The notes under the pieces were generated by a model. That model worked only from the letters and a program-made list of their open reading frames with translations. It was not told the origin of the DNA and ran no database searches. DNA of 61,421 bases, filler included, from Streblomastix strix (Eukaryota), in assembly GCA_008636045.1 (NCBI GenBank). It is 4 parts of 4 records of this genome, joined end to end, with 100 filler letters (N's around TTAATTAATTAA, not from the genome) between each part and the next. Parts side by side here need not be neighbours in the genome. Positions count along the whole stretch, not along the records: positions 46,157 to 61,421 come from SNRW01001010.1; 3 more parts are not named here. The stretch is one strand, 5' to 3'. This document shows positions 1 to 61,421 of the stretch, one piece after another. The position numbers were made by a program, and so were the translations under genes. Within the stretch, counting starts at the first letter, position 1, and every line of letters begins with the position of its first letter.

Positions 1-128
1 TAATTAAAAATCTGAAAATTTATCTCCCTGAAATGAATTATAATATTTATTAAATTAATTTTTTTTAATCAAACTATTAAGTTCATGGAAATGACTGTTT
101 TTGGGGAATTATTAAAATCTAACACCAC

Positions 129-2015: not shown

Positions 2016-3020
2016 GAATACTAAACGTATTCAAGGGGGCAATCGAAATGATTTTATATGGATAAAGATACCATACACAAAGAAGATACTATTATGCAAT
2101 GGAAACTTAAGAGATGGACCTAAATCAATCACTACACAATATTTGACTTATTAACAATGAAACCACATATCATTATAACAGATGTATTAACTTAATTCAC
2201 TTCAGTAAACACTTCATCAAGCTCAGCACTTCAGTTTCTTAATGGACTCTCCTCAATGCTATCACTCACATTTAACATAGATTCAAAGAATAACCACATG
2301 TTCCAATTTCCCAGAAAATTGATTTCAGCACATATGATCGTGAAACCGAAATATGATGCTACATGGAACATGGGAATACTATTTGACTATTGAAGAGGAA
2401 AAAGATAGACCCGAAATTAGATAAATATTGAACTGTAGACTAAACTCACTTCATCCCTTATGACTATTTGTTCAATGAGACCAGCCGAAATCGAAGGAAT
2501 ATCTCTAAGACACTCAGTAATTTGCGAATAAACTGACAAGGTTGACTTACGACTACAACCGAAATCAAAGTCTAGACTTCACTCACACAAACTTCCAAAG
2601 ACTAGAGATCGAACTGTGTGTCCAAGAGCAAAATTTTTTGATTGTTTGAAAAGAATTGATAACAAACACAGTCGATTCATCAGAAACAATAAGTATGGAG
2701 CATTACGGTGGAATGAAGGTATAACTATACTAGCCAAAAGGGGCCAAATCTCATTCAGATTAAAGAAATTACTAGATGTGATGGGTATTAAAGGGAAATA
2801 AGTATATTCCTTAAGACACTCAGCAGCAACATAACTAATAGTAATGGGTCTAGACGAAACATTATTAAACACATACATAGGACATGCAAGAAATTCGAAA
2901 TCAACAAACGAATACTATGTATTTGCAGAAAGATTAAAAGATAATGAAATAGCAACGAAACTATCTAATATTCGTGGCCAAGTGGAATGTAATCCAATTT
3001 CAAGTACTCAATAAAAGTGA
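2009..3020 (+). pseudogene. Tyrosine recombinase of the DIRS element
   Basis: PKYDATWN, SMRPAEI (catalytic R), YSLRHSAAT, YIGHARNS, NEYY. Frameshift near 2105 and TGA near 2391; ends at TGA 3018-3020. Start approximate. Confidence 0.85.
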
Positions 3021-4049
3021 AGTTGTTGGATATAATATATGCACTCCTCAATTGCCATAGTGGGACTATTGGTAATTAGAGGATGTATAATAATATACAA
3101 CAACTTCGCCTTGGTCCACTCATCAGTCTAAATCTCTATAGAAATGCATTCATATAGTTTTTTACTTTAGTCCCAACCCATTGTGGCGTTTGTGAATCAA
3201 TCACAGCACTTTACGTATCATATATTTTCTTTATTATATCACCTTTATCAATCTCCTGCAAATACTATCATGCAACAATGACAAGTAAGTAAGTGAACTG
3301 TTGACAATGGTATCTAATAAGCTAGTGAGCATGAGATGCCAGCAATTTTTCATGGATGGATATGTTCATGCAGTTCGCTGATAGAATTTGAATCTAGAAA
3401 CATGGATATTTTTATTTATTGGCCATTTTATTTAACATTTAACTATTTTTATTCAATATTTTAACCAGTTTTAACTTTAATATTCAACTTTATTTTGTTT
3501 AATTAACGTTTTTTAATTTAACTTTAATCTTTTTGTTCGATGCGAGTACTTCTATGCTTAATTATGTAGTCACTTATTTTGGTTTTTACTCTTACAAATC
3601 ATTTATTTATGGGGAGTTTCTCTTGCTGGCATTCTTCTCACCCACTTTACATTATAAACAACACTTTGTCTAAATTTTTCTGCTGGATCTCCTGTTGAGA
3701 GTCCAGATTTATCAATTTTTTCTACCTTTCTTTTTTGTTTTTCTTAATGGCCACTCCATTGTAAACATTGTTTGGGGAATGGCCAGAAGAATCACATCAA
3801 ATAGTTGATGGCAATCACTCAATAAAGGCGAAGTTGTTGTATATTATTATACATCTTCTAAATAATTTTAATTTTTACTGTTATTCTAACATTTGCAATA
3901 TATTCTGTTTTTTATTTTTCAAAATATATTTTTAAAATTTTAATATAGAATTGTGTTTAAATTAATTTTGAAAAATATCTTATTTTTTATTATAAATTGC
4001 GTTTTTCTCGTCCATACAAAATATTTATCAGTGCTTTGATTATATTCCA

Positions 4050-9413
<5,364 letters not shown>

Positions 9414-9741
9414 AAACTAAGGATTTGGAAGAAAACAATATGAGGGATATGATATGGCGAATAAATAAATCCATATTTTGAAATTCATTCTATATCCTTT
9501 TAGTCTTTCTTTCATATGATACATATAAGTCATTTATTTTACTAGCGCTCCTACTTACACTTAACAGAGATTCATTTTAATAATCATTCAATAAAATTTA
9601 CATATAATTATCATCTTCAACACCATTATTTCTCATTCATTTAACTCTTTGAATAAAATAATAATAAAATTCATAAATAGCTTATAAAAAATATTAGAAA
9701 TTGAAGTATTTAAATTAAATTGTACTATTTAAAATTTAAAA

Positions 9742-10869: not shown

Positions 10870-13800
10870 AAATCAATATTGGATATATTTAAATTCTCCA
10901 CTGATGGAACTGTTAAATAGCTCAGAACTAGAGTTACTTAATTATTGAATTAACAATAGTTCCCTCAACGAGAAGGTAGAACTAAATTCGATAAGTTTGT
11001 AGCATTCTCAACTGAAAAACATACAGAGTCAATTAAAGAATAAACAATATATGAAAACTTACTCAAAACGTAGAAATAGATAGTCAAAGCAACTAACTTC
11101 AATGAAGCTAGAAACAAAATAGTTAGACTGGAGCACTTAACTTTAGACTAAATTGATATATAAGATAAATAGATTAATTCAAAGGAGAAGATATAGAAAA
11201 TGATGATCCTTAACACATCAATGCTCTTATGTTTAATGAACCTCAAGAAAGAGAAAGTTGTAGGGCAGCAATAAATTAAGCTAGATTATATAAAGTAATT
11301 AGAAATATAGTTGTAGTAACTGATGATGTTTCAATAAAATACAATAATAATTAAATCAGAAATATTGAAGATATAAACGATACAATTGACTATGTTCATA
11401 ATTAAAATGGTAGACGGATATATAAGATGTAATTCATTTTTGGTACTGTTAGTAAAGAACTAGTTTATAGAACATATGAATATAAATGTTAACCAATATT
11501 AGATTAATTCATCTAAATACACACTCCTATAATGATATATGATAATGCTTAGATAGAGATATTTAAATAATACGTTAAGAGTACTATAATTGAGATGTAA
11601 GATTTTCAATAAACAGAATAAACAAAATAGAGATATATTGGTGTCTATTCAATGATTATAAAGATTAATCTACTTCCAGTAGCAGGCCTTTGTCTTTAGG
11701 AGTTAATTGATTAACATTATACTTCTCATAGAAAGTAACAATTCTATCAATAATCTGATTTGAATGATTGCTTCTTGTTATAATATGCTAGATTCATATT
11801 ATAAGACAAAGTAGCAACCAAGTAACCGCTCTAACGATTATCTCCTTGACAAATAAGTTTTGAAGCTAAAAAATAACAAAGTGAATTCTATAATCTAATG
11901 AAGAAGTAATACGATACATTCATTAACGATTAAAAAGGATTTGATTTAGTATGTGAATTAAATAGAATTTTCTACTTAATTTTTTTCAATTAATTTTTAT
12001 TAAAATTGAAAAATAAATATTAGATCATAGAAATTTTTTTCAATGTTAATATTTTATATTATTGATATATATACTTAATAGTTTATGGCCAACAACTTTA
12101 AAGTTTTAAATTGCTGGTATCTATTTTAATTTTTTAAAATCAATTTTAAAATTTTAAAATAAAGTTAAAAAGATGCATATTAATATTAATTACAAAAATG
12201 AAAATAATGAAACTTATTTCAGTATAATTTGATAAATACATTTCGTAATGATGTATATGGGTAGTGTATATTTATAATTATAGTAAAATGATCATATAAT
12301 TATTTTAAGCATATTAGATAAATTACTTATTGCTAATAAAATAAGGTATTTTGAATATTGAAAAAAATAATTTTTTAAAATATTAAAAACTGAACTAATA
12401 AAACTTAATAGTTTATATATCAATTATTTTATGCACACATACATACATACTTCCACTATTCATCTTAGCTCTATCTTGCTTGATAAAAAAGTAATCAAAA
12501 AGATGCAAACAATTTGACGCAAAATTTTTGCTTATTTTTTAATACATTCAATAATTATAATATCAATTAACCATAATATGAAATGTATTGATTCTGATAA
12601 CAACATTAAATATTACATACATATATGCATATATCACATATATTAATATATTTGAACAATCAGTTATTTACATTGAATTGCATTTATAATTTTTTATCAG
12701 AATTTTACGCAAATAATTTGACTCGCAGTTTAATACTTAGGACAAAATCAAACATAGAAAGACAAACAATAATGTGACCATTAATGACTTTTAATACTAT
12801 AAGGATCTATTCAGTCGTTCTACTTGTGCCATTTGTGGTGATAAATTTACAATGAATAATAAGCCTACTTTAGATCGTATTAATAATAAACTACCTCATA
12901 CTAAATCAAACTGTTGTCCTTGTTGCTTATATTGTAATCGATATAAATCGGATAAAGATGAGAAGATAACTAGACTATTTATTCAATTGAAAAGATACTG
13001 TATTGCTAATTATCTTCCTCAAACTATAGTCAATATTGAAGTATATTAGCACATAAGACGTTATATTACTGGTGGATTATCAAATGTAATGCACCGTTAT
13101 AATCGTGTCAATATCGACACAATTAAATGCTATTATTATAATGAAGATAACAAAACCATTACTGTAATCAATACAAATCATACTATAATTCATATTTGTG
13201 GTGTTGATTTTAAATCATTATATCCAAATTGTTTCTCATCGTAATATCATTCCTTTAACAAGTATATTAATGGAATTATGTATATGTGTGGATCAGTAAC
13301 AGGTATAATTCATTCATGATCAATCTTAAGCTAGAAAAATAATACACTCAGATGATCGATTCAATGAGAAAGGATAACTATTCATTGCTTAACTGAAGGG
13401 ATATATTGATGAGAAATACGTTAACGATTTCGTTAATTGTGCCCCTATTGTTCGTAACCTATCATACGCAACTAATAAAGACACTATAGGGTAATATATG
13501 TATGATTAGATGAAAATTGCTTGAGCAAATACTGATAAATAAAGAAAGAAAATTAGCTCAATTATTATCTACTCATAATTAGTATTTGACCTTTAATTCT
13601 TATTATTTATGGTTCTTAATTGATGACTGTCATTCTAATATCGAAGATATTAAACTGTTAGTCATATACAATAAGCATAGTAAATTTAATGCTTTCGCTA
13701 ATGAGTTTATGAATAAACGTATTGAAGCTATAAAATAAAAGAATAGTGGTTTAGATAAATTTTATAAGATGATTTTAAAAGCTTCTTATGGATCTGATGG

Positions 13801-14638
13801 TATGAATACTGAGAAATATAACAAGATAAAACTACTTACTAAAGAAAAGACTAAAGAAGCACATATTAAGTTATCATGGATGAAAGATCATTAATTAGCT
13901 GATTACCTTTATGCTATTCAATTTAGTCCAAAGAATTGCAAATGTAAAACACGTTTTCTAGTAGCTTATTTTACACTAGACAATGTTAAGTATTGGTATC
14001 ATAATTTCATATATAATTTCAAGTATAAATGTTTGCATATGACTAAACTCCTTTTCATTGAAGGAGATACTGATTCAGCTTATTGGATAATTAGTGAAAG
14101 ACAAGTTATTAAAGGAGATGATAATTAATAAGAGTATGAAGATAATTTGCATTAATGTTTCAAACATGTTATCAAGGACAGGTAGTTCTATGACGCTAAC
14201 GCAAAATGCTTCTTTCCAACTATTGAAAGAGACAAATCTGACGAAAAGAAATTACTAGGTTTATCTATTGAAAATTAAGGAGATGAAATATTTGCATTAA
14301 CCTCTAAGAATTATTATATTCATACATTTAAATGTAATTAATTAACTGATGCAATTAAACTAAAAGAAGTTAATTTGAAAAAGAACAATATAAGCAAATA
14401 AGATGTGATTGATAATATCGTTAGTGAAAAAATTACACAAGGGACTAATATTCGATTATGTCAATAGGCAGATTAATTCTGAGAAGGATAACTGTCAAAG
14501 TCTAATTGTATGAGTAAGTTATTATCAACTATTAACACGTTAACTTGAATAAAAATTAAGATAAAAGAATTGAAAAATAGTTAAAGTTATTTATCGATTA
14601 TCTATGGATTAATTGCTGATAGTTATTTAGTTTGTTGA
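10870..14638 (+). pseudogene. Protein-primed family B DNA polymerase (Polinton/Maverick-type), degenerate
   Basis: ITGGLSNV, VDFKSLYP (~13203), YKMILKASYG (~13763), IEGDTDSAY (~14057), KNY/KLK motifs, N-terminal NDCFLLQYA. Several stops and frameshifts plus a non-coding block at ~11975-12700. Start approximate. Confidence 0.88.
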
Positions 14639-15288: not shown

Positions 15289-15388
15289 NNNNNNNNNNNN
15301 NNNNNNNNNNNNNNNNNNNNNNNNNNNNNNNNTTAATTAATTAANNNNNNNNNNNNNNNNNNNNNNNNNNNNNNNNNNNNNNNNNNNN
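15289..15388. other. Artificial contig spacer (44N-TTAATTAATTAA-44N)
   Basis: Identical 100-nt construct occurs three times in the window. Confidence 0.97.
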
Positions 15389-44263: not shown

Positions 44264-45290
44264 TCAATCCACATCCATCTAGAGCTCCTTTTTATTAATG
44301 AGACTGTGTCTTTTGAAGGTTGCTAATCTTTCTCTTATTCCATCATTAAGGGTCTTATCATAAAACTTTGCCACTGTATTCGGCCCATTCTTATGTCTTG
44401 TCATACGATTAATCTATTACTTTGTAGCTCCAATCTTAACTTGTTTAGTTACCGATGAAGCTCTTATTGAGGTCACCGAATATGTCATCTCTATTCCCGC
44501 AAGTTTCATTATCTCATGCACTGCTTTTGAGCCATATTCAACCGAAGCCACTCTCTTTGTCTTGTTGAGATACCAAAGATTCTCCGATTATGTCCTCTTT
44601 TAATTGCCATTAATCCACGCAGCTAACCAAAAAGATGGTGAAGTGTTCTTATACTTACTCTTGCGAAATGTCACTACCACGCCATCATCGCCGCCTTTCC
44701 AAGTCGCAGTTGATAACTACCATACTCCATTATCGCCTTTTATAGCTTCAGATCTCATTACCTCTGCTAATCTAAGCACTGAGAATATCATTATTGAAAC
44801 AATAGTACATCCCATCATAGTTTTCTCTGATATTTATCCAATGTTTCTTGCTTACTCGTCAAGTACCTATAATAAATCATCCAAATTGTAGATTGATTCT
44901 TCCTTTTGTGTCTTTCTTAACGCTGCTCTATATTTCTTCATAACTAGCTATAGTATTTTCCCTTAAATCTATTAATCTGTATGTCCAGACACCTTAAATA
45001 GTAATGATAAAGCAGCTACACTTTCAACGATATTGTTTGCTGACGCTTTATTCTACTTCAAATGCATGACATAATTGATTACCTCTGCTTCAGGATCCTT
45101 ATGTGATATCAAATCTTGCAATGAACCACTTCTTCCTTTCCAGTAATCAATGAACTATCCGATCCTCTATCTGTGCCTCCTCCAGGCTGTGTGCCAACCT
45201 TAGACAGAACTGTTGATGGCATCATCACTTAACCCTCTTAATCGAGCTAGTTCGAAGAATGTTTCTTCTCCTTTTTCCCCTTGAACTTTG
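44264..45290 (-). CDS. Tyrosine recombinase, apparently intact
   Basis: SVLRLAEV, TWKG, VTSIRASS, RMTRH, KFYDK; ends at TGA 44264. Start approximate because it overlaps the upstream ORF. Confidence 0.85.
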
Positions 45291-46056
45291 CTACCAACAA
45301 ATCTCCTGGTGGGAGATGCCGTCTCTGCTTTCTCATGCGACCGCCTGGGACTAGCACGTCTGCACATTTTCCCACAAGAACTTGGTTAACTCGAACACTC
45401 TGGAACGCGGGCCACCAATGCTGTGCCTCCCAATTAGGAAGTATGATTACACCTTCTGCTTAATCCTTCATTATTTTATTCAGTACTCTTTAAATCAACA
45501 TTATTGGTGGATGTAACAACAGAGTTTCTTTCTTCCAATTAAGCTTGAACCCGTCCTACTTTAACGCCCAACAATCTTCCATCAAACTACAAAACCTTTT
45601 ACACTTTCTGTTTCGTCGGTTTGCAAACACATCCACAGTTGGCCTTACATCCGGACACCTCAGAGCTTCTTCTAAAATCTCTTATCTTATCTCGTAATCC
45701 CCACTCGCGGACAATCGTGACAACGCGTCTGCAACTTGGTTACTCTTGCCAGGAATGTGAAACACCGATATCTATATTTGCATTAATTCTACCTTCTCCA
45801 ATATCATGTTTATAAGTGAAGCTAACGCTGGAGCTGCCGCACCCCGATTCAGATTAAGCACTGCGCTCGAATTATCCGATTATATTCTAAGGCTACTGAT
45901 TTTGTAACTGATGAGTTCCTTCTCCATCCTACATAACGCAAGATATATTGCTGCTGTCTCCCTTTAGTTGGACGAGGCCAGTCTCCACCGAGGACTCCAA
46001 GGTTCTGACAGTTTAATCTCTTTTCCTGTGTTTATTATTTCTAAGGTGGCGCCCCA
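45109..46056 (-). CDS. RNase H + adenine-methyltransferase-like C-terminal part of the DIRS pol ORF
   Basis: WGAT, SSNQRETAAI, SDNSSAV, HIPGKSNQVADALSR, VDVFANRRN, LLLHPP, LPNWEAQHWWP. Confidence 0.88.
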
Positions 46057-46156: not shown

Positions 46157-46520
46157 GTGAAATACATCGATTTGGGATATTCGCAGCCTAAGTCGGAACT
46201 TACTCCTGAAAGTTTACTTGCTGATACTCCAATTTAATGTCCATTTATTGGTAATTTTTAGTAATATCATTAAATGCTTATAATAGCAGTTTCAAATTAA
46301 TTATAAGGAAATGCACTGCAAGGAATAGGTGGTTAATGATTCTCCAACGTATGTTATAAGTAAAATCTTATTGGTGCACCTGTATTATGGGGTTAGAATA
46401 TGTTATCTCAGTAATGTAATATAGGATAAAATAAATCAGTTATATTTACGTTGTATGATAATTATGGAAGAAAAATACCAAATCAGTTCCTTGATATGTA
46501 TAATAATTTATTGTTGGAAA
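46157..46520 (+). pseudogene. C-terminus of a putative minor capsid (penton) protein
   Basis: SVIFTLYDNYGRKIPNQFLDMQIIY resembles the 'L.D..GR.I' C-terminal motif of Polinton-type minor capsid proteins; one internal TGA. Confidence 0.45.
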
Positions 46521-46571
46521 TACAAACTCAATGACTGCGTATCTCGTCACCAAACTTCGTTTGGTGAAAAA

Positions 46572-47246
46572 TCAAATTAAATCACAATCTCTGAATTAAA
46601 TTTCCTAAGCTTATTCTTATTCTTATTCTTATTCTTAAATTAGTTCAGGTTACTGTTGTGATTGATCTTATTTTTCTTAATATTTCTTTGATACATAAGA
46701 TGTGATTTTTGCTTTATATTTTTCGACTTACTTTACTGAATCTTGATGTTATTGCTTAATAAATTTGTTTTCAGTTCGTAATCTTATTAATTCCTCTAAA
46801 TCTACTTATGGTGAGGTATAATTTATCTATGGTTACTTCTTTATAATTTTCATCGGTTTTGATTTAGATGTTTGTCTTGGTTATTCCACAATAATTTAAT
46901 CTTCTAACTCATCATCGCTATTTATTGGAAAATCGTAAGAGTACGCCGGAACAGCTTAATCGCTTCGCGAGTATTTACGTTCATTTCCTGAAGCTTCTTC
47001 TTCTGATTGTTCACTATTTTGTTCAACATGTCTTTTTAATGTTCGTTTTGATTGTTTAGTTTAGCCTCCACCTCTTGCTTCTAATAATAATTTAGTTTAT
47101 TATGCTTGAATCAGAGTTCTTGCTGCTTTCTTTCCTTCTTCATACACTTTTATCTTATCTTTAACTTACATAATATATCCATTACTGAAATATTCGATTG
47201 AAGTTCCGTTTTCCATGAGGTTCTTTAATGCTTATGCTTGATTCAT
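46572..47246 (-). CDS. Hypothetical charged viral protein (224 aa)
   Basis: ATG to TGA open in the TAR=Gln code; E/Q/K-rich. Confidence 0.6.
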
Positions 47247-47287
47247 TTTATAAGATACTTATTGATTTTATTTAAACACAAAATTAT

Positions 47288-48010
47288 ATGACAACAATAC
47301 AAACAAATCAAATAAGAGTTCATAAAAGCAAACATGCGAGTATGGTTAAGAAAGAATTATCAGAAGATGATAAGGCGAGATTATAAGCAATTGATGAAGC
47401 TATAACGAATGGATTCAGAAAAGCAATGTAAATTCTAACATTATAAATATAGTCTTTTGTTCAGACACCATTACGAAGCAGAGATTTAATAATCGATGAA
47501 GAAGAACCACAACGAGAGATATAAACTGAAAGACGACGAAAACACAGGTATAATATTAATAAATATAAAGAAGTTCCACATGAAACAGTTTAGGTTGAAC
47601 CAGAATAAGTTGTTAAGGATACATATTTATCTCATCCTGACTTAGAAGTATAGAAATTCATCATAGATACGATTTGGAGATGTGTTGATTCACGAAAGAA
47701 AGATGAAAATTTAATATTTAACTCTGATAACTATATTAAACTGTGGGCACTAATAACTTAAGAAGAAGAGAAAGATATTGAAGTTGTTATGGAAGAGCCA
47801 CTGATGAGATATAATAGTTGTACTTCAAAAAAATATAAGAAGAAAGAGATTGTAAGAATAAATGATGTTCTAATAAAAATGTCTCTATAAATGTTATGGA
47901 TAATGTTCTCTATAACAGTATCGAAAAACTTTATAGAGTAAATGTTGATTTCGTTAGATTATCAGATAAAATAGAAAACGAAATTGATCCTGAAGATTTT
48001 TTAAAAATAT
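47288..48010 (+). CDS. Hypothetical viral protein, 3' end uncertain
   Basis: Long open frame from ATG 47288; likely frameshift near 47880. Confidence 0.5.
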
Positions 48011-48039
48011 AGTAAATATTATTTTTATTTTCTATAAAA

Positions 48040-48460
48040 ATGGAGGAAACTAATAAATATTAGATATTGAAAGTAGATAATGATTATGAAATATTGACTG
48101 AATTCCCACATACAATTAGAAGAATCAAAGATGGTTTTATACCTTTAGTAGATCTGATAATAGAATTGAAAATTTAAGATGGTGTACTCACTCAGATAAT
48201 TAAAGAAATAAAATAAGCAATATATATATATATGAATACTTAGATTAACTACCAGATGGATGTAAACCACTTCTATCATATAATGATCATCAGTTGGAAG
48301 ACTATTATTATGACAACGATCACAATATTTACACTTATAATGGTTTATAATACAGAAAATTAGTTATTCATAACTATAAATGCTTATAATCTCGTCCAAT
48401 TGTATGTGTTTAAGATAAAAATCATTAAAAATTTAATATTTATGTAGAAAATATTTGAAT
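48040..48460 (+). pseudogene. HNH-family paralogue lacking the nuclease core
   Basis: VDNDYEILTEFPHTIRRIKDGFIP...YNGLQYRKL matches both flanks of the 54035-54607 gene. Confidence 0.7.
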
Positions 48461-48497
48461 TCATCATTATGAAATTGTTTATTTTTGTTGAAAACTA

Positions 48498-49454
48498 ATG
48501 GAAGAATAAGCGTAATAAATAACTGACTTGGAGGATACATCAGAAGAAGAACTGTAATAAATGACATCTGAATATGAGAAGATGAAGAAATAATAATAAG
48601 AAATAGAATCACTATAGAAGTTGTAAAAATAAATAACTTAATAGATAGATAATGAAAAAATAAAATATTTTACTTACTTTAGTTAATACTTTAAGAAAAC
48701 ATAAGTAGATTTATCACATTTAGTAACATTGAACACAGCTTAAACTATTACTGGAACTAAATCATTTAATAATCAAGTTACAGCAAAATCTTTTAAAGAA
48801 CCAGAAGGTGCAAATTAATAAATTATGCTTGCAAATGGAATTAATATGAATCATTATAATTTTAGACCTTATTATGATGCTGAGTGTGTTGATGGAATAA
48901 GAATTTCCAGAAATTTAGCAAAATAGACATTGGATTAGGATTCAAGCATATATCTTGGCTGTTCTAATACTTAAGAAAGTGGTGCTATAAGTGGATAATG
49001 GTCAATAACAGCAAGTAAATTAAATACTTTATTAATTCATCCAAGTAATGATTCATAACATGGATTAGCTATGATGAGCGATAGATTAATGTTTAATGAT
49101 CTCGTAATTTATCCTTCAACTTTATTAACTAATTATTGTAGTTCCATAACTTTGAATACAAATGTATCAATTCCATCGGAATTTCCTACTTAATTCGTCT
49201 ATAAAAGGTAAAATATGGTGTTTATTAAAATGGTTTTAACAATATATGAAACAACATTCAGTTAGAAAGTTGTTACATTAAGCATTCCATAAGATATTGG
49301 GCTAACTTTAGAAAAATAATATATTCAACTTTAAGAAATTTCTCTTTCATAAGGTTCTGCTTATCCAACGAATGTTCATTTAAGAATTAATGGTCCAACT
49401 GATAATTATTACTGGTAAGTATGGAATAATCAAAAAATAAGTTGGGCAACATGA
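48498..49454 (+). CDS. Short fibre-like protein (coiled coil, QTITGTKSF repeat, beta-rich tip)
   Basis: LVTLNTAQTITGTKSF; DGIRISR..SSIYLGC..GQW module shared with 51023-53277. Confidence 0.65.
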
Positions 49455-49953
49455 AATTCTGTAATAATTAATGGAATGTATTATATTTAAACTTAAGACT
49501 ACGCGAAGCTCGTCGCTAAATCGTTCACGATTTAGAAACTGTGTCATATGTTTTAAGATTCAATAACTTCAAATACAATATATATCTTCACATCTTTTCA
49601 TGTTCTTCATCTTATTTTTCTATGGCTTCCTTAATGAAATCCTCTACTTATTCATTTGAATATTTGGACCAATGGAAATAACTTACTTAGTTAATGTTTG
49701 GTTTCTCTTCAGATTCTTTTTATGATTCCATTTTTAATTTCTTTCTCCTACGATAAACAAATTGAAATATATATATAATTATATTAATAGGAATTAGAAT
49801 CACATCAAAATAATTCCATAATTATTTTATTAAAGCAATAATATATGTTAATTACTTAGGAATTGATAGAGAAATTATAGACACAATGAAGTTAACTCCA
49901 TAAAATATAGAATTGAAAATTAATATTAATAGATTCATTTGCTTATTTAGTAA

Positions 49954-50985
49954 ATGACGTTATCCGAGATATAATCTGTGACATTTACCGATAATTCTAT
50001 GTTAGATGAATATAAAACCAAGCCATTGACAAGGAATTCATTATTCTTAATCAATGGTAATCATTATATAGTTGATGCAGTTGGTTCAGGTAAAACAACT
50101 TTATTAAGTAAACTGATAATAATCTATAAATAACGAATCAATCGATTCATTTTATATTTCTCTAATTTTGGTGCTGATGAGACTATGGCATTGAATCTAA
50201 ACTCTAAGAATGTAATCTTAACTAATATTACTTATGAAGAATCAATGTATTTCCTTCCTTAATTTGATGAAATCAAGAATATGGTAAAAGAAATCTATAC
50301 GTACTAGAAACTAAGAGAAGTTAACGTACCTTATAAATCAGATTTCATATAACGAATGAAAGAAAGAATATTAATAACTAATCCAATAAAAGAGAAACTG
50401 AAAGAATCTTAAAAAGACTATGTAAAACGAATTGCAGATTTATTTTAAAAAGAATGTATCGATATCATTATTAAATACAGTGTTCCAACAAAAATAATGA
50501 GATTTACAATTCCAGCAATGATTCATAATGTGTAATTCGAAAAGAAACTAAAAATCGTACCATAAGATACATCAGCTGATGCTGAATTAAAAATAATAAA
50601 AATTCCTATATTATTTCATAGTTCCTTATTAAATTCATTGTTAATATTTGATGACATAGGAAGTAATGCTGATATTTAAAGATTCTCTTCAGGATTATCA
50701 AAAACAATAACACATTTAGTTTCCTACAGTAGACATAGTAAAAATACTGTTTTCTTTGTTGCTTAACGTCCAAGTTACTTATTTAAAACTGCAAGAATAT
50801 TATCTGATGTTATGTATTTAAGAGTTAATCTTAGTGAGAGTGATTTAAAACAAGCATACGAAGAGAATTCTATTTAGAATCTTGACTTTGATGAATTTAT
50901 GTTACTATTTGGAATTATTAATAAATATGAATTCAAAATACTTAATAAATATTAAAGTAAATATGAAATTCTAAAGAATCAATGA
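49954..50985 (+). CDS. A32/FtsK-like genome-packaging ATPase
   Basis: Walker A YIVDAVGSGKTT, Walker B LLIFDD, SRH and FFVAQ motifs. The true start may be upstream (frameshift near 49880). Confidence 0.88.
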
Positions 50986-51022
50986 TAATATATATGATTA
51001 TATTTATTTTTTTTATTCAAAT

Positions 51023-53277
51023 ATGACATTAGCTAAAACCTTGAGTTAATAATAGATCTAAGTTATTCGTTCATTAATATAATTAGATTTTCAATATTTG
51101 ATATAATATTCAAGGAAATCATCAAGTTCCAGCAGTTAATTATCAGGAAGTGAATATTCATTAATAGTTGATGATTAAAACTCATTAATATATGCACCAA
51201 TAGATAATCCTTAGAATTACGCTATGAAACTAGAAACTAATGGTGTAATGACATTGAAGAATATAAATTTATTAAATAATGATTTCTTAGGTAAAATAAC
51301 TACGTTAGAATAAGAAGTTAACGTATTATAATAGACATTGGGAACAGCAACTTAAGATATTGATGGTTTATAATAATAAATTAATGAAATTAATGATGAA
51401 TTTAATAGATAAACACATTTTAGAGGATAGTATTTATTGAACACAAATATATAAAATTTATCTAATTCTGCAAATGGTGATTTTGCATTCTCTGCAGAAA
51501 GTGGAACTGTATGGATGTATGATTAGAGTTGGAATAACAGTGGAGATATAGTTCCTGATTAAATAACTCCTGCAAGTGATGCTACTCCATTAGTTGATAG
51601 TGGAACTGGAGTTGCAGGAACTTCAAATGAGTTTTCAAGAGGAGATCATAAGCATCCACTATAAGTTTCTGATGTTTTACCAAGTAAAGATACTTCTGTT
51701 GGTACTGTTGAATAAGCTAGTTCTTATGCAAGATCTGATCATTAACATCCAATTCAGACTGTAGATACTATTCCTAATAGTGATTCTGCATATGGATCTT
51801 ATGGTACAGTTGATTCTTACTCGAGAAATGATCATTCACATCCTATTAATGTTTAAACTAATGCTTCAATTGTACCAATAGTTAGTGGAGTTCGAAATAA
51901 TGGTACTTCAGCATATTATTCAAGACATGATCATATTCATCCTTAATAATTAACTTATGATGGTAATGTAACAGCAACTAAATTTATTAAATCAGGAGGA
52001 ACAGGTAATGATATATTGCTAGCTAATGGATATACAAAATATATTAATGGCGTTACAGTAAAAAATATATCAAATAATAATGGTTAAGATAAATATATTA
52101 AATTATGCCATTTTAACGCAAGCGCTGATTTTAATATACATTTATTGAATTTGCTTTGTAATGTAGATAGGGATTTGGAAAAATATTAGTAAATTTATAC
52201 TATAATGAAGGTATGGGAGGCTTCATATATAACTATAAACCGTGCATTTTCATTAATGAGCACATAGTTAATCCAATTGCATTATTCTATGGTTAGGGAG
52301 TAAATAAAACAGCTGATTTATGGTGTAGATTATAAAAATATTGTCGTGAAGGATAAATAACATAAACAATTGAACGATTCAATCACCCTGAATGTATAAC
52401 TGATATATTAACATCGGAACCTGTTGATTAAATGCCTACTGATTTTTCAGATTCATAAGAGTTATTACCTAATCTATAAGCAAATTACTTTACTATAAAT
52501 AATGCTCCATTTACATAAGATGGTAGTATGTAAATAAATCCTACAGTAACTAGTTAAGATGATGGGTTGAGAATATCCAGATCTGCCACAGAAGCAGGAA
52601 ATTCATCAATTTAGTTAGGATGTAGTAGAACTTATAACACAGAACTTACTGAAGGATAATGGGTAATATTTACACCATCAAATACTGCTGAAATTAATCC
52701 TTACGGTTTAGTATTAGCAGTGGCATCTTAAACTGGTGATAATACTAGAGGATTATAAATTAGTGCTAATGGAAACACATTATCTTTCAACGGAAATGTA
52801 TTTGTTGATTTAACAACTGATTAATCAATAGCAGGTATAAAAACATTCCATAAATTAGTATAAGTAATTCCATCAGCTAATGGTACATTTAACGAAAGGA
52901 TAAGAATAAGTAGACATCCGTCAAACTAATGGAGTAATATATAATTTGGTAGCGATCCAAATACAAATTTTGGTAAGATTGATAATTAATGGCTGGTAGG
53001 ATCAACTGGTAATAATGGTGCAAATCCTCTTGGTTTTGTCATCGTAAAAGCAGGAGAAGAAGGTTAGGCTAATAGAGGATTATAAATCAGTGCTGATGGA
53101 AACACATTATCTTTCAATGGCTAAGTTATTGCTTGTGGATCAGTTAATTATCCATAAGGTAGTACAATATTATGGGGTACAAAAAGTCTTGGTACAGATG
53201 GTGGATTCTATACTGATGGAACAACTGTATTCTGGAGAGATAATGCATTATAATTTGATAAGTTCTACTAAGGATGA
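51023..53277 (+). pseudogene. Long tail-fibre-like protein with one frameshift (~52140)
   Basis: Four (S/A)RxDHxHP repeats, TDQSIAGIKTF, and duplicated G(L/I)RISR...QW...RGLQISA(N/D)GNTLSFNG modules. Confidence 0.75.
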
Positions 53278-53333
53278 GAATTTTTGATTTACAAAGCTGT
53301 GCTTAGATGTTTAGTTTTATTTTTATTAGAAAC

Positions 53334-53783
53334 ATGTCAAAGCCACTTAAATAATTAATCAATGAACTAGCAAAAACAAACTATGAAGATAAAGATTTAA
53401 TAAGAACAACGATTGAAACACTATAGAATCAACTGATGAAAAATAAATAAGATTCTTAACATATATTACTTAAAGAATTAATAAGAATTAATAAGTAATT
53501 CACAATACAATAGAGTAAATTATAGTTAATTAAATAATTTGTTGATGATGAAGACTAAAAAATTAAAATATATGGTGAGAATAATAAGTATTATGCAAAT
53601 GAATATAATCAAATCAAGAAGAAGATGGATTTGAATCAACAACCATAATAAATAAATAAATATATTATATCTGAGGCAACTAATGATGAAAAATATATAT
53701 ATAATTAGTTTGTTACAGATACTGATAATCAATTATTTTGTGCGTACTATCAATTAACTTAGCTTAACGTATCTTAATAGTGA
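53334..53783 (+). CDS. Hypothetical viral protein
   Basis: ATG to TGA open frame in the TAR=Gln code. Confidence 0.45.
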
Positions 53784-54034
53784 AGATAATCTATGACTTC
53801 CTATGGTTTTTCCGATATAAGACCAAATCTTTCATTACATTCTTATTTTTTCTTATCATAGAACTCTTATTGAAAATCATCTAATTCCTTATCATCATTC
53901 AATGCTTCAAAGATTTAAAACACTTCATAATCAGAAGCATTATGTTCTTTTCCTAGAGTTTAATCAAAGTAATATAAATCTTCCATTTATTATTAGAAAA
54001 ATAATTTATAAAATTATATTGATTATTTTTATAA

Positions 54035-54607
54035 TCAAATAAGATCATATAATTTCTTGAATTTATTTACTGCAATCTTAGTTAATTTATCATTTATATC
54101 TCTTGCTTTAACAAAATATGACCATCCGTTATAAATTATGTGTAATTTTCTATATTAAAGACCATTGTAGAACCAGAATTCATCATTATCGTAATAACAA
54201 AACTCAAACTTATGATCTCCGTAATCTGTAATTTCAATAGCATCATCAGATAATTCATCAACAAATTCGTAGTTAATACCGTTTTGTGATTCTTTATTCT
54301 ATTAATTAACAGAGTTAGATACCCATCGTAAATTTTCGAGTCGATTATCTGATTGAATACGATTTTTATGATCCACTTCAGGTAAATTTTCTGGATTAGG
54401 AATGAATTATATTGCAAAAACTCGATGTAATCTATAAAATACCTAATTAAGAAGTATTGATGTATAACCATCGAAGTTTGTTCCAGTTAATGGAATAAAT
54501 CCTTTAGATCTCCTTCATATAGTATGTAGTTCTTCTATTAGAATTTCATAATCATTATCAACTGTTAGTATTTATCACTGATTTTCTTCAATTTATTATT
54601 CAGTCAC
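54035..54607 (-). pseudogene. HNH endonuclease
   Basis: HRVFAIQFIPNPENLPEVDHKNRIQSDNRLENLRWVS; two in-frame TGAs near the start and a C-terminal frameshift. Confidence 0.9.
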
Positions 54608-54666
54608 TTTTGAATTTAACAAAAATAATTTATAAATTTATAGTATTTTTATAATTAATTTTAATA

Positions 54667-54873
54667 TCACCGTTTAATTAAGTATTAATCTACTTTTCCA
54701 GCTATGTTTCCTGTTGTTCCCATAATTGCACCGATTACTGGATGTAACGTACTTACTGGACCTGATAAAACTCTCATTACTTTATGAACGGTAGGGGCCA
54801 GCCATGAAGCAGCTTTCTTAATACCGGTTAATATTTTGGAACCAAAATTTTTCAAGCCTGAGAGGAATCCCAT
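54667..54873 (-). CDS. 68-aa amphipathic peptide, adenovirus protein VI-like membrane-lytic candidate
   Basis: MGFLSGLKNFGSKILTGIKKAASWLAP...; divergent from the putative major capsid gene. Confidence 0.7.
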
Positions 54874-54934
54874 ATTTAGTTAACTAATAAAAATCAATAG
54901 ATAGTTTTTATATTAGTAAGTAAATACAAGTACA

Positions 54935-56881
54935 ATGAGTTTCTCTGCAAGTAATTATTTTTAAAAGCTAGCATAAGCATAATATTCTGATTATGTTTCT
55001 TCATATTCTGCATTGAATGAAGTTTTAAGAACTGCATCAATTCATCCTTAAAGATTTAATACAAGTAGAGTTTAGTTCTTTGATTAACCAGTAACACAAT
55101 TAACAATTGATGGATAAAGATATACTCGTGCACCATTAGGTGCTAGAGGAGGTGGTATATGTTCAATGGTTTAAACTTGTTAGGTTAATTGGTAAATAAC
55201 GATTCCAGTAGGTAGATTAGCATTATAAATTAATCTTAATGATTTAACAGAATAGCTGGTGCTGCAACAGCGTTGTAAAGAGTAAACTTCACAAGAAATG
55301 CTGATTATTAATTTAATTATTTACGTACTATGGCAGCAGGAGCAAATGCTGATACATAATAAGCATTTAATACTTCAGAACATATCAAATTTTGGCTCGG
55401 ATTTTCAACTGCTTGTGGTCCATTTTAATAATTTACCATTTGTAAAGATAATGCAAAACTATGGGATACATCAATCTATGCATGAGAATAAGCAATGATA
55501 TCAGCAAATTCATTATCAGACTTATGTACAAATAATTCAGTGAGCGTATCACCATTAGAATCAATAGTGGCTGGTAAAAGACTTTGTGGAATATTTATTG
55601 ATATACCAGTTGCCGCATTTAGTGCAACAGCAGAAAGATTTAATTATTTAATACCATATCTAATAACTTTTTCTGGTGTACATGATTTAAATTAGTTGAA
55701 TCCAATTTTCAATTCATTTCCTGTATTAACACGCAATTATGCATCCTTATATCTATAGTTATGGATCTAAGATTTCTTATAAGATCTGAAGATTGTATGG
55801 TTAAACAAGACTAATTTGGTAACAAACGAACATCTTGCATATTAAATGATTCCACCAGAGAAGCCAAATATAATATTCCTAAGAAATCGTGATGAAGTTG
55901 CTTATGATACATACACTGTTAGAATAGTTAATATAGAAGGAAACCATACACTGAAAAATTTCCTACCAATACGATTTCACAGATAAAAGATGCAAAATTT
56001 AATAAATTAGACATAAGCAACATAAGTTTTAATATGGAGAATGAAGAAGCAATTATAGATCTAATCCGAGCTCAAAAATTATTAACTTTTCTACTTAAAT
56101 TATTCATACATAATCAACAAATTTTCCTTTCGGTGGTTTTGATGAAAATGAAGGTAATTTATAGAGTATAATGTCATTTACTAATATCAAAGCAATGTAT
56201 ATGACATTTGCAATGTACTAATATCCTACTTGGTTCTTTCCTGTTTTATTATAGAGGTTTGATCTAATAATTGATTAGCGTCATCTAGTACCAGAAGCTT
56301 ATACGTCACTTAATCCAATGGTTTATAATCAAATGTTTGATTGCTTTGTTGATTAAGATGTTGTAGCAGCGCCATCGGATTTATATCATTCATTATCATT
56401 TGAAAACTAATCAATAAATGAAGCAGATAATGATTATTATGGTAAAATTGGAGCTGGAATAATAGAAAGAGAAAATATATTCTATTAAACTACGTCATTT
56501 AAAGGAAGTAAAGCAACAAAAGTGTATTATCCTAATAAATTCATGCTTGTATGGAAGATGGCTACAGATGATTCATTCATGAGAGGCTACAATTCATCTA
56601 AAACGGGTACAAGAACTAATATATAAGTTAGTTTACAAGGCAGTTTAACTCCAGTTATCAATGAAAATTCATTAATTAATGCAGAAAAGAACTAGTATAA
56701 TCACCAAATATTTTGTGCAACACGAAGTCATCCAAATCCTAGAACTGCATAGATAACTCCATTGATGCATTATCTTTGTGATGCTATTGTTAGAGTTACT
56801 TTTGATGATGCACCTGATCCATAAGTTCTAACTTTAGAAATAATTGGTGAATTAGGTGTAACAATGGTAAGAGTAGGATGA
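54935..56881 (+). pseudogene. Putative major capsid protein (double jelly-roll expected), degenerate
   Basis: About 640 codons, beta-strand-rich (KFWLGFSTACGPFQQFTIC; LMHYLCDAIVRVTF); size and context fit. Frameshifts and a TGA near 55482. Fold not verified. Confidence 0.65.
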
Positions 56882-57026
56882 AAAAAAAATGAGCTAAATT
56901 TATTTTTGTTTAATATGAAAATGTAACTAAATTCATATGAAATAACATTTGCAGATTTAATAATTTACAATGATCCAATTTTACTCTTTTTACTTGTTTT
57001 CTAACACATTCATTTTTAGTAAATTG

Positions 57027-57298
57027 CTCGTTGAAACTCGTTTTCAGACATTAAATTAGCTATCAAAATCGCAAATCACTCGTTGAAACACGTTTTTGAC
57101 ACTTAATTTTTCATCTACTATGCTAAATCACTCGTTGAAACACGTTTTCAGACGAAATCTTAAGCATCGGCTCAATGCATTATTTTTGTTTTTTGAGCTC
57201 TCAAAAATTTGAGTACGTGTAAAACGAGCTCTGCAAATTAACAAACACATGAAAAACGAGCTCTGCCAACAATCAAGTTGCTTAAAAACGAGCTCTGC
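57027..57298 (+). repeat. Periodic subterminal repeats: 3x CTCGTTGAAAC(A/T)CGTTTT at 52-bp spacing and 3x AAAACGAGCTCTGC at 32-bp spacing
   Basis: Copies at 57027/57079/57131 and 57221/57253/57285. Confidence 0.9.
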
Positions 57299-57856
57299 AA
57301 TTAACAAACATGCTTAATTTTTCGTCTTCGAAAATTTTGATAGCGCTTTTTCAAAATTATTTTTTCATAAATTTTGCATTTTTTACTGCTTTTTAGTTTG
57401 ATCTATGAAAAATACGTTAAAATCGATATTTACAAACGTAAAAACTGGTAAAAAATGAAAACACCGATTTGCACCATTCCTATACTACTAATTAACCAAT
57501 TTCCATAGGTTAAAATTAGAAATCAAAATAAGATCAGAAATTATAATTCATTTAGAAAATTTTTAATTTCATTAATTTTTATTAGAAATTTTTAAAACAT
57601 TGTTCGAAAAGTTTATTGCTTTTTATTAATTTAATAAATACTAGACATATACATAATATTAATATTTTTTTACCTACGCATAAAATTACAATATATTACG
57701 ATACAGAAAATGAAATTTGAATTTTGAAAATTTAAAATCGCTAATTTAATTGTATTTTATAAATTCAAAATCTGTTTATTTGTTTATTTAATTAGAACAA
57801 ATATATTTGCGCATATTTCCATCTTTAAATAAGTATACAAACATCCCGTTTCGAAT

Positions 57857-60800
57857 ATGGACATACACATAGTAATTATCAAATTCGGAAGCTGTTTGCG
57901 ACTAAACATGCGCTCCCCGTTGTCCCTCAATAGGTGTGTTTATAATTTTTTGTCTTCAATTTATTATTTTAATTGTTGCAAAGAGGATGAATCTATTGGC
58001 GGTATTTCCCGATAGATGTTTCGCATTTATTGCTGTTGATAATAAAATTTATACATACCGCCTGCACTCTGGACTTCTATAATCATCGAGGCGCTATTAT
58101 GAAATAGAGACGTTCCCAAAAATAGTATGAATTTATATTATTCTATTTTATTATTAAAAATCTTTTTAATTTAATTTATTTAGTTTTAAATTAACCAACT
58201 CCGATTTGGATTCTTACATGGACGCCAAGTCCTCATTACTGTGAGTTGCAGTGGACTCGTTCATTTTTTTGATATTCCGAAGAATATATAATTAGAAATA
58301 TTAAATCAAAGCTAAAAATCACCTTTCATTCAACACTCTTATTGGTATTGCATTATAAAATATATTTATTGTGTATTTACAATTAGACAATTCATTAACA
58401 ATAAATAATCTTATAAACAATATTTTTTACTTATTTCTACAACTTTACATTAATTACATCAGAAACACGAACTGGAAAGGCCGCGCTGAAGAAACTTTGG
58501 GTGTTGCACTTCCACAATAAGAAGATTGGCCTTCTGCAGACAATGCGATCTTTGCTGTATCAGCCAACACTCATTTGATTACTTTGATTGATGAGAAACC
58601 AGTGAGTTAGAATTGTGATTACTGCATTAAACGCAGAGATAATGAAGATATTATCCAGCTTGAGGAGGAAAGACTGCATTTGCATATGAATGAGATTATA
58701 ACACAAGGATTAGTATTATAACAAAAGATAATTAAAGAAAATGAAATTTCACTCAAGATTGAAAATTAAACACCAAATTAAATAACTTAAACTTTAACAT
58801 CATCATCTTCTTCTTCTTCTTCATCTCCTTCATAAAAGCAATATCCAATTATCCAATAGTATTCATCATCAAACCAAACCCACATCATTTCATAAACATC
58901 TCACATATTACATTCACCCTCACTAATACATGCATCTACATTCATGGTTCTCCTTCAAGGCCACGAAAACAACATTCCTGGCATTGACATATCAGGATGT
59001 GGTAAGTTCCTTTGCTCATGTTCTGTTGATGGGACATTCCTTGTTTGGATGATTGAGCTTCCAATGCATCCTCCGATGTGGTTCAAATCAAGGAATGTTA
59101 CAAAATAAGGAAAAAGAAGCCGTTTGTAGAGAGAGAAAAAGTTTGGTGAGAGGTAGTAATAGTAAGAGTAATAGTTGATATTGGCTAAAGATAATAAGGA
59201 TTTAAGTTAAATGAAGGAATAATAAACAACAGTCAGTAATTCTGAAAAAGTATCATAATCATCGAATATACAAAATTAAAAATCAATTAATAATAAAAAA
59301 TCAAATCATTAAAAAGATATTATCAAACTCCCAGATGAAGGAATGATGCAACTTCCAACATATATATTTATTTTATTCATTCAAACCTACAAATGAATAA
59401 AATCTTCCCAAATACATCTCACTTTCACACTTAGCATATTTTGCTCAAAGATCATTTCAAATATAATAAGGAATAAGAATTGAAAATTAATCTGAATTTA
59501 GTCCAGAAAATGAAAACATTCCTCAGACTCCTACAATTCAAACAGGATTTGAATATGATGAATCGCATTCATCACAACATCTGCAATTTCAAACGATTTC
59601 TCAGTTGCGTCTGAAAATTGTGATTCACATATACCAATAATTGTATCTGCATAACATCGGTTAGTTTAGAAAACAAGCTTTAACTATTCATAACTAAATG
59701 ATTTATAATAATAGTAATAGTAATTATAATAATAAGAATATGATGAACAATAAAACCAAGAAGCACTTTCCCCATAAAGACAACAACATCAGCAAAAGAA
59801 ACACACGACACCTGGAACACACAGAAGAAGAAATGAACTTATGCAACATCATATAAGAGCATACTCACTAACATCTTCTGAAAAGCATGATGGATAGAAT
59901 AGAATAAATAATAATAATATTGATAATAATAATATCAATGAATAGAATTATAATTTTAAATCCAATTAAATATTAGAAGGTGATGAATAGATAATAGATG
60001 ATACTGATTATTAGAAATTAGATTATAAAGTTCTTGAAGTTGAAGTTCCAAATAGAAGTGGGTAATCATCACTGCATAGACGTTGTTGGACTGAATAACC
60101 TTTACAAGAAAAGATTTAAATAATTACAGATAATAATAACAACATCAATAATAATGCAAATATTAACAATTAAATACAACCATAGGATTCAACTTATAAT
60201 ACCGCTACTCCTGAAGAAATACAATCAGATTTAGAATAATATGAAAATGAAGAAAATTTGATTAATGTATAAGAAGAACCAGCTGCAGAAAGATATCACA
60301 ACAGAACTGTATCAATGAGCATAGTGAATATTTTCTTAAGATAAGAAATAATGCAACAAAACCTTTTAATTGCTCAATAAAATTAAGCAGCTTCAAATAC
60401 TGAAACCAAATAAATAAGCAATCCAACAAATCAAAACAAAACCTATCATAAAATGATACACATTCTTCTGAATAAACGAGCTCAAACAGCGAAAATGAAT
60501 ATTTATTGTATGAATTTCCTTCTCTTCCGCACAGAAGAACAGTGTAAGCTGCAGCAAAAGCAAACAAAGCGATGTCAAAACACGCATCTCGATTAACATC
60601 AGCTTTCACACCTTCAACTCCAACACCTCAATTAGTGACATCTCTTCATTAGTAACAACTTTAACACATCTCAGCATCACAATTAAATATAAGACATTAG
60701 TAATTTTAATGATAGATATAATAATAAATATAATTAAAATAATAATAAGCATCTTCTCCTATTTTATAATAATTACCATAATATAGATTTATAACGCAAC

Positions 60801-61068
60801 CTTAATAATATATTGATTAATCAGCTCCATAATATCAGATGAATTCTGCAACTGCACAAACAGTACCAAATGAAAGATCAATTCTTGCTCCTCAGAGTTA
60901 AATGCGTTTGGGTTAATTATTATCATAGTCATAAACATAGCCTCCTCAAGTTTATTCATCATTAATCGTTTCTCCTCCATAAACACATCAATAATAACAA
61001 CCTTAATAATAAACATAATCTACATCTTCTTCTTAATAGTAAACATAATTTACATCTTCTTCTCCATG
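57857..61068 (+). CDS. CRT10-like WD40 protein with long Q/S-rich insertions; possibly disrupted
   Basis: INQLRFGFLHGRQVLITVSCSG, TLGVAL..FAVSANTHLIT, LQGHENNIPGIDISGCGKFLCSCSVDGTFLVWDI. Several 5' introns; apparent frameshifts/TGA in the 3' half. Ends approximate. Confidence 0.55.
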
Positions 61069-61421
61069 AATAGAGTTGGTGCATATGCGATTGAAGGCAG
61101 AATTATTGATATGTCATCGCTTACACTCGAGTTCAGACTCAGATGATCTGATTGTTGTTGACTCAAAGATGGATAGAAACTTTGTCTTGGTGGAGCTGGA
61201 GCCATATATAGTGATGATAAAGAAGGACTTCGAATGCTTCTTCCTTGATTCAAACCTCCTATACCAAACAGTAGTGGTGTTAATTGAACTCTGCGTTGAA
61301 TAGATGGAGCATTCAGTGTAGATTCATGAGATGAAATATATTCAGGCATCAGCATCGGTGTGAATTATGATGAATTTGATTGTGATGTTGAATGAGTATG
61401 TGAATGTGTAGTTAGACTCAT

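Follow-up and report, generated by a model that had tools for sequence, protein, structure and literature searches.

A decayed, left-truncated Polinton-like virus remnant from Streblomastix strix, with genes that read TAA and TAG as glutamine

Which kind of element is an array of packed, intronless genes that is invisible in the standard genetic code, how complete is it, and has it been described before? These questions are raised by a stretch of DNA of 61,421 nucleotides from Streblomastix strix (assembly GCA_008636045.1), hereafter the window, which consists of four contigs joined via N-linkers at 15289, 30677 and 46057. The element lies in contig 4 (SNRW01001010.1). An initial annotation took it for an endogenous Polinton-like virus written in the host's TAA/TAG=Gln code, and our analysis confirms a Polinton-like virus remnant: besides the capsid gene there are the gene of an A32-type ATPase, the likely end of a penton gene, two genes each for fibre-like and HNH proteins, and end repeats. 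Very probably, these 11 kb are the right-hand part of a Polinton-like virus genome that is broken and likely integrated in the nuclear DNA of S. strix, with genes that read TAA/TAG as Gln and a capsid predicted to form a double jelly roll. The element starts at the first letter of contig 4 (46157), its left side having been lost to the assembly cut, and the replication and integration genes would sit in this missing left arm.

About 13 packed gene-sized units were mapped within 46157-56881, eight with a label and five without. In this stretch, one frame of at least 100 amino acids (aa) is found under table 11 versus 57 stop-free frames under table 6. Thirty base shuffles of the same stretch gave a mean of 63 table-6 frames of at least 100 aa. 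With two of the stops taken away, chance alone thus yields long table-6 frames, and genes have to be established by homology; the length of table-6 open reading frames (ORFs) was rejected as evidence for genes, as shuffled DNA gives as many frames. The claim of a dozen packed ORFs that are open only with TAA/TAG as Gln therefore stands for the packed units, of which homology shows the ATPase, the capsid and both HNH genes to be real, but not for the open frames alone, which are uninformative.

The identification starts with the major capsid gene (54935..56881, + strand). It had been seen as a single large beta-rich ORF; in fact it is split into four frame pieces by frameshifts near 55250, 55950 and 56070, and an in-frame TGA lies at 55483. 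The pieces are 80-93% identical to P0048, an intact S. strix relative of 649 aa, and all 112 longer relatives of the C-terminal piece are annotated as Streblomastix strix proteins. The fold was obtained for P0048, not for the broken window copy. With an alignment of 44 rows, in which distant relatives were added to the S. strix rows, the predicted structure reached a predicted local distance difference test score (pLDDT) of 83 and a predicted template modelling score (pTM) of 0.87. A Foldseek search of the PDB with this model returned the capsids of Paramecium bursaria chlorella virus 1 (PBCV-1), Emiliania huxleyi virus (EhV), an iridovirus, mavirus and Sputnik (E 5e-12 to 2e-9), and virophage capsids ranked first in a viral predicted-structure library. 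The top 15 rows of the VIA wide aligner were all double jelly-roll capsids (best Z 14.9, root-mean-square deviation 3.6, 336 aligned residues, 7% identity), and the language-model neighbours of the capsid were Capsid_N, Capsid_NCLDV and the Sputnik major capsid protein (scores 0.95-0.96). The jelly-roll expectation is thus borne out by a model that matches only double jelly-roll capsids at the top, and through its intact relative 54935-56881 is the major capsid gene, with a predicted double jelly-roll fold. By sequence, the capsid gave no Pfam, PHROG or PDB match (a profile search of the PDB included), and nine capsids scanned against the virophage capsid Pfam families gave none. Short-pattern scans of viral and genome contigs, which are blind to TAA/TAG Gln codons, found no relative.

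The second pillar is the genome-packaging ATPase (49954..50985, +; 343 aa, frame intact), which carries Walker A, Walker B and downstream Arg and Gln motifs and has 45 relatives, all from S. strix, which brings the named close relatives of the two genes to 157. Pox_A32 was matched in five of 18 aligned copies at E ≤ 0.05, the best exceeding the curated cut-off; P0003, a relative 91% identical to the window copy, scores 26.2 bits against a cut-off of 22.8. A profile of the ATPase, searched against PDB sequences, matched nothing. The gene first called a clear packaging ATPase is accordingly of the A32 type. In the window copy, Asp replaces the first glycine of Walker A, and 10 of 159 near-invariant columns differ from the family, compared with 0-9 in 15 of 17 other copies, and by its sequence it is likely dead despite the intact frame.

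The genes also occur together elsewhere. Among 303 stored S. strix or related proteins matching the window, 20 gene models join at least two of the element's genes, and the set is carried by L002, a standard-code metagenomic relative of 13.4 kb with 16 ORFs that encodes a capsid, a small peptide discussed below, an ATPase (27% identical end to end with that of the window), a penton candidate and a fibre-like gene. L002 also bears on the left end of the contig. The piece at 46157..46534 (+), cut by the contig start and carrying an in-frame TGA at 46337, matches the C-terminus of a 701-aa L002 protein (20/48 identical, pairwise E 4e-5, 0/200 shuffles as high). Among the Atlas neighbours of this C-terminal region is a V18/19 minor-capsid cluster of Sputnik (score 0.95), 52% of whose members carry PF21507. 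By this two-step lead, the piece is likely the C-terminal end of a penton protein.

The right end, initially placed at 57310, is probably near 57490. A non-coding right end and candidate terminal repeat (57020..57490) follows the capsid gene, with three repeats at 52-nt spacing (57020-57153), three at 32-nt spacing (57215-57310) and ACTACT at 57484-57489; one contig of run X2 aligns to 57126-57490 and ends there. We take ACTACT to be of the type of motif that ends Polintons, which our literature search did not confirm. No partner arm for the right-end repeats was found within contig 4, of which the left end is cut; L002 has repeats at its capsid-proximal end. Beyond the element lies a host-like flank (57491..61421) with a piece of a WD40-repeat gene (58686-59396; PF00400, E 2e-5). 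The same contig continues from the element into this gene piece and depth drops there. In run X1, the bins over 46157-56845 have summed contig depths, which are not copy numbers, of 1010-77873, against 137-243 in seven of the eight bins beyond 57355. The flank bin 60409-60917 has a high summed contig depth and is probably another repeat.

Four termite-gut DNA runs from two studies contain parts of the element, the best of which may be the window's own source; no RNA run was among those listed. Contig 4 drew alignments of 10402 contigs from X1 and 2029 from X2, most of them less than 99% alike, and many diverged copies are thus present in the termite-gut data. The copy in the window is a decayed, left-truncated remnant, as had been supposed: the capsid frameshifts and TGA and the ATPase departures agree on this. 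The breaks could instead be assembly artefacts of a collapsed multi-copy repeat, with the true locus or loci intact and potentially active, an explanation that is compatible with the viral identity. Its support lies in the false frameshifts reported for short-read assemblies of such elements (PMC10120064), in the 10402 diverged X1 contigs on contig 4, and in the capsid gene models, of which 21 of 112 are full length, although the annotation of these models may have skipped breaks. Against it stand point changes at conserved sites such as the 10 ATPase columns, and in-frame TGAs in the penton, HNH and capsid genes; moreover, at many places nearly all aligned contigs differ from the window letter, as expected for the private mutations of an old copy. 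We consider artefactual breaks rather unlikely, though a serious alternative to true decay.

Whether the decayed virus is new was addressed with the capsid. A profile of 40 S. strix rows, searched against 1.84 billion representatives, matched 213 proteins, the best 150 of which were listed. The 148 newly listed matches comprise 138 in the S. strix group (two at 39-43%) and 10 full-length or near-full distant relatives. These distant relatives are metagenomic and standard-code at 22-31% identity, the code being seen at the DNA level in L002 only; a metagenome scan with the capsid gave three loci at 27-32% identity. In a quick, unrooted tree with long branches, made from 30 rows of about 130 capsid sequences chosen for length, 18 S. 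strix capsids fall on one side of a branch with a Shimodaira-Hasegawa-like approximate likelihood ratio test (SH-aLRT) value of 100, with subfamilies that are 55-90% identical. As a separate observation, the capsid in S. strix gene model P0155 is joined to another region (residues 326-666) that is primase-like by eye and has no Pfam or PDB match; the primase-polymerase of Yaravirus is reported to cluster with Streblomastix sequences (10.1101/2020.01.28.923185).

Bellas et al. 2023 (PMC10120064) place 820 S. strix capsids in one cluster (Metamonada, cluster 40; Table S4), which was seeded from Trichomonas capsids and in which S. strix capsids match trichomonad capsids at ~31-33% over ~527 aa. 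The element may be one of these 820 loci, already counted and offering nothing new: host and code are the same, Table S4 counts 820 capsids, and the Atlas clusters nearest to our capsid by features are those of Preaxostyla and Parabasalia (0.97-0.98). Yet there is no trichomonad-type capsid among the 150 profile matches listed, where a 31% relative scores E 4e-97. None of nine cluster-40 S. strix identifiers from the paper's tables occurs among our 112 capsids, and none of six of our identifiers was found in the text of its supplement. Moreover, our capsid has ~650 aa, and the paper's example has 562 aa and is unlike it by eye. We therefore judge an already counted locus unlikely, and on this indirect evidence the capsid family is probably separate from cluster 40 of the same host. 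The suggestion that the element may be undescribed has to be divided: recoded S. strix viruses are published, but this capsid family seems to fall outside the one S. strix cluster of that paper. A literature search covering few subscription papers found no prior description of the family, PMC10120064 being the only paper relevant to S. strix viruses.

It is very unlikely that the 11 kb come from a giant virus (Nucleocytoviricota) that had integrated, instead of from a Polinton-like virus of 15-25 kb. The best structural matches are indeed PBCV-1, faustovirus and African swine fever virus (Z 14.9-13.6), above mavirus and Sputnik (11.7 and 11.4), but all of these capsids are 6-10% identical to ours, and the predicted-structure library ranks virophage capsids first. 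In addition, all the morphogenetic genes fit into 11 kb that, like L002, end in repeats, and among the ORFs that were scanned none was a core gene of giant viruses.

The Polinton-like virus is, as first proposed, written in the host's code. In 2656 viral codons, Gln is encoded 180 times by TAA/TAG and 34 times by CAA/CAG (84% TAA/TAG). In three host genes the TAA/TAG share of Gln is 72-81%, a fourth having been dropped as out of frame (13 TGA), and the host-like genes in the window (MIF4G, WD40) are also read in table 6. When TAA/TAG were masked as X, the 35 capsid columns concerned held Gln in 21.4% of the residues of 12 distant relatives, compared with 3.7% in 571 other capsid columns (0/10000 random draws reach 21.4%). 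Because TAA/TAG make up 84% of Gln and distant relatives carry Gln in such columns, a long period of replication with the host's recoded translation is likely for the lineage, whose host range would then be limited to organisms using that code; a direction from the standard to the reassigned code is what we infer. That the codons reflect only C-to-T decay of a dead standard-code virus after its insertion in an AT-rich genome is hardly credible, since this copy, albeit decayed, AT-rich (27% GC) and slightly above the host genes in its TAA/TAG share, shows only 9-20% protein divergence from intact relatives, far too little for an 84% conversion, and its ATPase and capsid terminate at TGA where standard-code relatives terminate. 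Recoded viruses in S. strix had been thought possibly undescribed, but viral elements using the host's table were already published, with the same inference of a long association (PMC10120064), and code 6 has been reported to give the best reading of a giant-virus genome (PMC13524828).

Of the three outcomes named beforehand as refuting the viral reading (a large ORF lacking the jelly-roll fold, an ATPase of cellular P-loop type, genes that do not recur together), none arose, the ATPase being judged by its family profile. Several results weigh against a recoded Polinton-like virus of a separate family. Polymerase, integrase, protease, a paired terminal repeat and a target duplication were not seen in the ~11 kb, of which the left end is missing. 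The window's own ATPase had no Pox_A32 match in the Pfam scan, and the fibre and penton labels are indirect. The first capsid fold, made from the 40 S. strix rows only, failed (pLDDT 42, no structural match). The ATPase taken alone showed no Gln enrichment (1/10 columns; 2992/10000 draws as high) with four near-identical relatives only. Finally, the Preaxostyla and Parabasalia Atlas clusters may be known Metamonada capsids, and the case for a separate family draws on the best 150 of 213 profile matches.

Next to the capsid gene, and head to head with it, lies an intact gene for a basic amphipathic peptide of 68 aa (54667..54873, -). A homologous 69-aa gene follows the capsid gene in L002 and in L003 (32% over 69 aa, E 3e-4), and the peptide sequence is joined to the capsid in four other S. 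strix gene models, in both orientations. The best 18-residue hydrophobic moment is 0.59 for the window peptide (97/5000 shuffles as high; net charge +8) and 0.69 for that of L002 (5/5000; net charge +6). No adenovirus match was found in PDB or Pfam (MCPVI included), and a sub-threshold cecropin row appeared in seven of eight members. Adenovirus protein VI is encoded beside the major capsid gene. By analogy, the peptide is a candidate membrane-penetration (entry) protein with a putative role: it shares with protein VI a basic amphipathic helix encoded beside the major capsid gene, but differs in having only 68 aa and no sequence match. Protein VI disrupts membranes (cited in PMC6048507), an amphipathic capsid fragment has been proposed for mavirus (PMC6048507), and small membrane-active genes (cupiennin-like, PLA2X) have been described in adintoviruses (PMC8502044).

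If the element works like other capsid-encoding integrating DNA viruses, as we take it to do, intact members would build an icosahedral particle in which trimers of the capsid protein form the shell and the vertices carry pentons and fibres. The ATPase would fill this particle with the linear genome, and the basic amphipathic peptide would breach the membrane on entry.

The remaining genes accompany this module. Two fibre-like genes were labelled by their motifs, namely a 318-aa protein with a coiled coil and one QTIxGxKxF-type repeat (48498..49454, +) and a long gene (51023..53277, +), frameshifted near 52150-52420, with a coiled coil, repeated beta-rich modules and four HxH repeats spaced 31 aa apart. 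The sequence of the long gene adjoins the ATPase in 11 S. strix gene models and the capsid in three. Pfam and PHROG gave no significant match for the 318-aa protein, nor was there a significant database match for the long gene, for which the sole weak one is a Bacillus phage G protein (24%). The fibres first annotated here thus stand by their motifs, but the databases gave no firm match for the labels, and the likeness to phage fibres is presumed by us.

The HNH endonuclease genes noted initially are present as two broken paralogues. The first (54035..54620, -) has two in-frame TGAs in its 5' part, and its 54035-54514 segment matches PF13392 (E 6.5e-10) and PHROG HNH families (down to E 3.7e-17). 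The second (48040..48490, +) consists of two frame pieces that are 68% identical to the first over 34 aa and 46% over 97 aa. A deep X1 contig bypasses 54006-54646, which suggests that the HNH gene there is optional among copies.

The five unlabelled units are a charged ORF of 224 aa (46572..47246, -) and an ORF of up to 280 aa (47228..48070, +), both with no Pfam or PHROG family; a 116-aa ORF with a hydrophobic N-terminal half (49588..49938, -), an uncertain gene with sub-threshold Pfam rows only; a helical ORF of 149 aa (53334..53783, +) to which the Pfam and PHROG scans assigned no family; and a small acidic ORF of ~78 aa (53750..53986, -) with no Pfam family. S. strix gene model P0014 combines the 47228-48070 ORF with both ATPase and fibre sequence.

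L002 itself has no internal TAA/TAG, and 11 of its 16 ORFs end in TAA/TAG. The locus is partial, and its ORFs gave no Pfam match for protein-primed polymerase B (pPolB), RVE integrase or cysteine protease. Between the ATPase and the penton candidate (5380-7293) are three tandem paralogous ORFs of 201-222 aa with a shared terminal DIxIDxxW-like motif and no Pfam family. A short motif between genes is repeated behind several gene ends, in either orientation (21-47, 3805-3831, 7288-7310 and 9553-9572), and is a possible transcription signal.

Elsewhere in the window, contig 1 holds a separate decayed remnant of polymerase B (11157-14482, +), which reads in table 6 (PHROG DNA polymerase, E 2e-6) and into which an endonuclease VII/HNH-like domain is inserted (PHROG endonuclease VII, E 3e-13). 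Gene model P0110 contains our capsid type, and its tail matches the ORF upstream of this remnant (33% over 78 aa); we treat this sequence link between capsid and polymerase as a lead only. Two DIRS-like retroelement remnants with reverse transcriptase/RNase H and tyrosine recombinase were recognized by eye at 33-3020 (+) and 44267-46051 (-), the latter on contig 3, outside the virus. Their sole Pfam row is Phage_integrase at 2460-3017 (E 3.7e-5, below cut-off).

The capsid family and the conserved peptide are probably undescribed, the recoding itself being known. A wider reading, which we offer tentatively and hold at somewhat below even, is that of an undescribed deep lineage of small double jelly-roll viruses of anaerobic protists that capsid surveys have missed, with a capsid of 600-700 aa, an ATPase of 300-340 aa, a large penton and, beside the capsid gene, a conserved amphipathic entry peptide doing the job of adenovirus protein VI; one branch would have moved from standard-code hosts into a host with TAA/TAG=Gln, changed 84% of its Gln codons and radiated to more than 100 copies. 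Should this be true, one virus family is represented by recoded and unrecoded genomes side by side. The value for virus taxonomy and evolution lies in a probable second type of capsid in S. strix that comes with intact relatives in the standard code, a pairing that lets the recoding of a virus lineage be measured; the viral load of S. strix would exceed the published 820 capsids if the family was not counted there. The conserved peptide is a small, testable candidate for the entry of viruses that have never been isolated.

Compared with known systems, the element shares with the Metamonada (MMN, cluster 40; PMC10120064) elements of S. strix and parabasalids the S. strix host, a modelled double jelly-roll capsid, many copies and TAA/TAG=Gln. 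It differs in the ~650-aa length of its capsid, in having no trichomonad relative among the matches listed, and in having standard-code metagenomic contigs (22-31%) as the nearest relatives of its capsid. With Maverick-Polintons and adintoviruses (Polintoviricetes) it has capsid, ATPase and a likely penton in common, and small membrane-active accessory genes are described there (PMC8502044), but their pPolB, RVE integrase and cysteine protease (PMC4028283) are not in our 11 kb, from which the left arm is missing; an adenovirus-like cysteine protease gave no Pfam match in the window ORFs or the 16 L002 ORFs, both sets being partial. Virophages (mavirus, Sputnik) resemble it in the capsid fold (Z 11.7 and 11.4), in their top rank in the viral model library and in the V18/19 penton lead, and are unlike it in that no virophage capsid Pfam family matched, no protease was seen and identity is 7-10%; by VIA, the match of the capsid fold to virophages is no closer than to giant-virus capsids. 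Polinton-like viruses are defined broadly by a module of capsid, penton and A32-like ATPase in bioRxiv 10.64898/2026.06.19.733378, which leaves the Metamonada elements ungrouped and asks for more genomes. Our capsid, with no Pfam, PHROG or PDB match by sequence, is unlike those of this broad group, but the morphogenetic module is shared, its penton being a likely one, as are the HNH and fibre-like extras. Of the linear genome of 15-45 kb with terminal inverted repeats and the integrated state that also characterize the group, contig 4 shows right-end repeats and the continuation into the WD40 gene piece. Since two of the defining features, a double jelly-roll capsid (on the P0048 model) and an A32-like packaging ATPase, are present outright, we place the element with the Polinton-like viruses in this broad sense and do not file it as a Maverick-Polinton.

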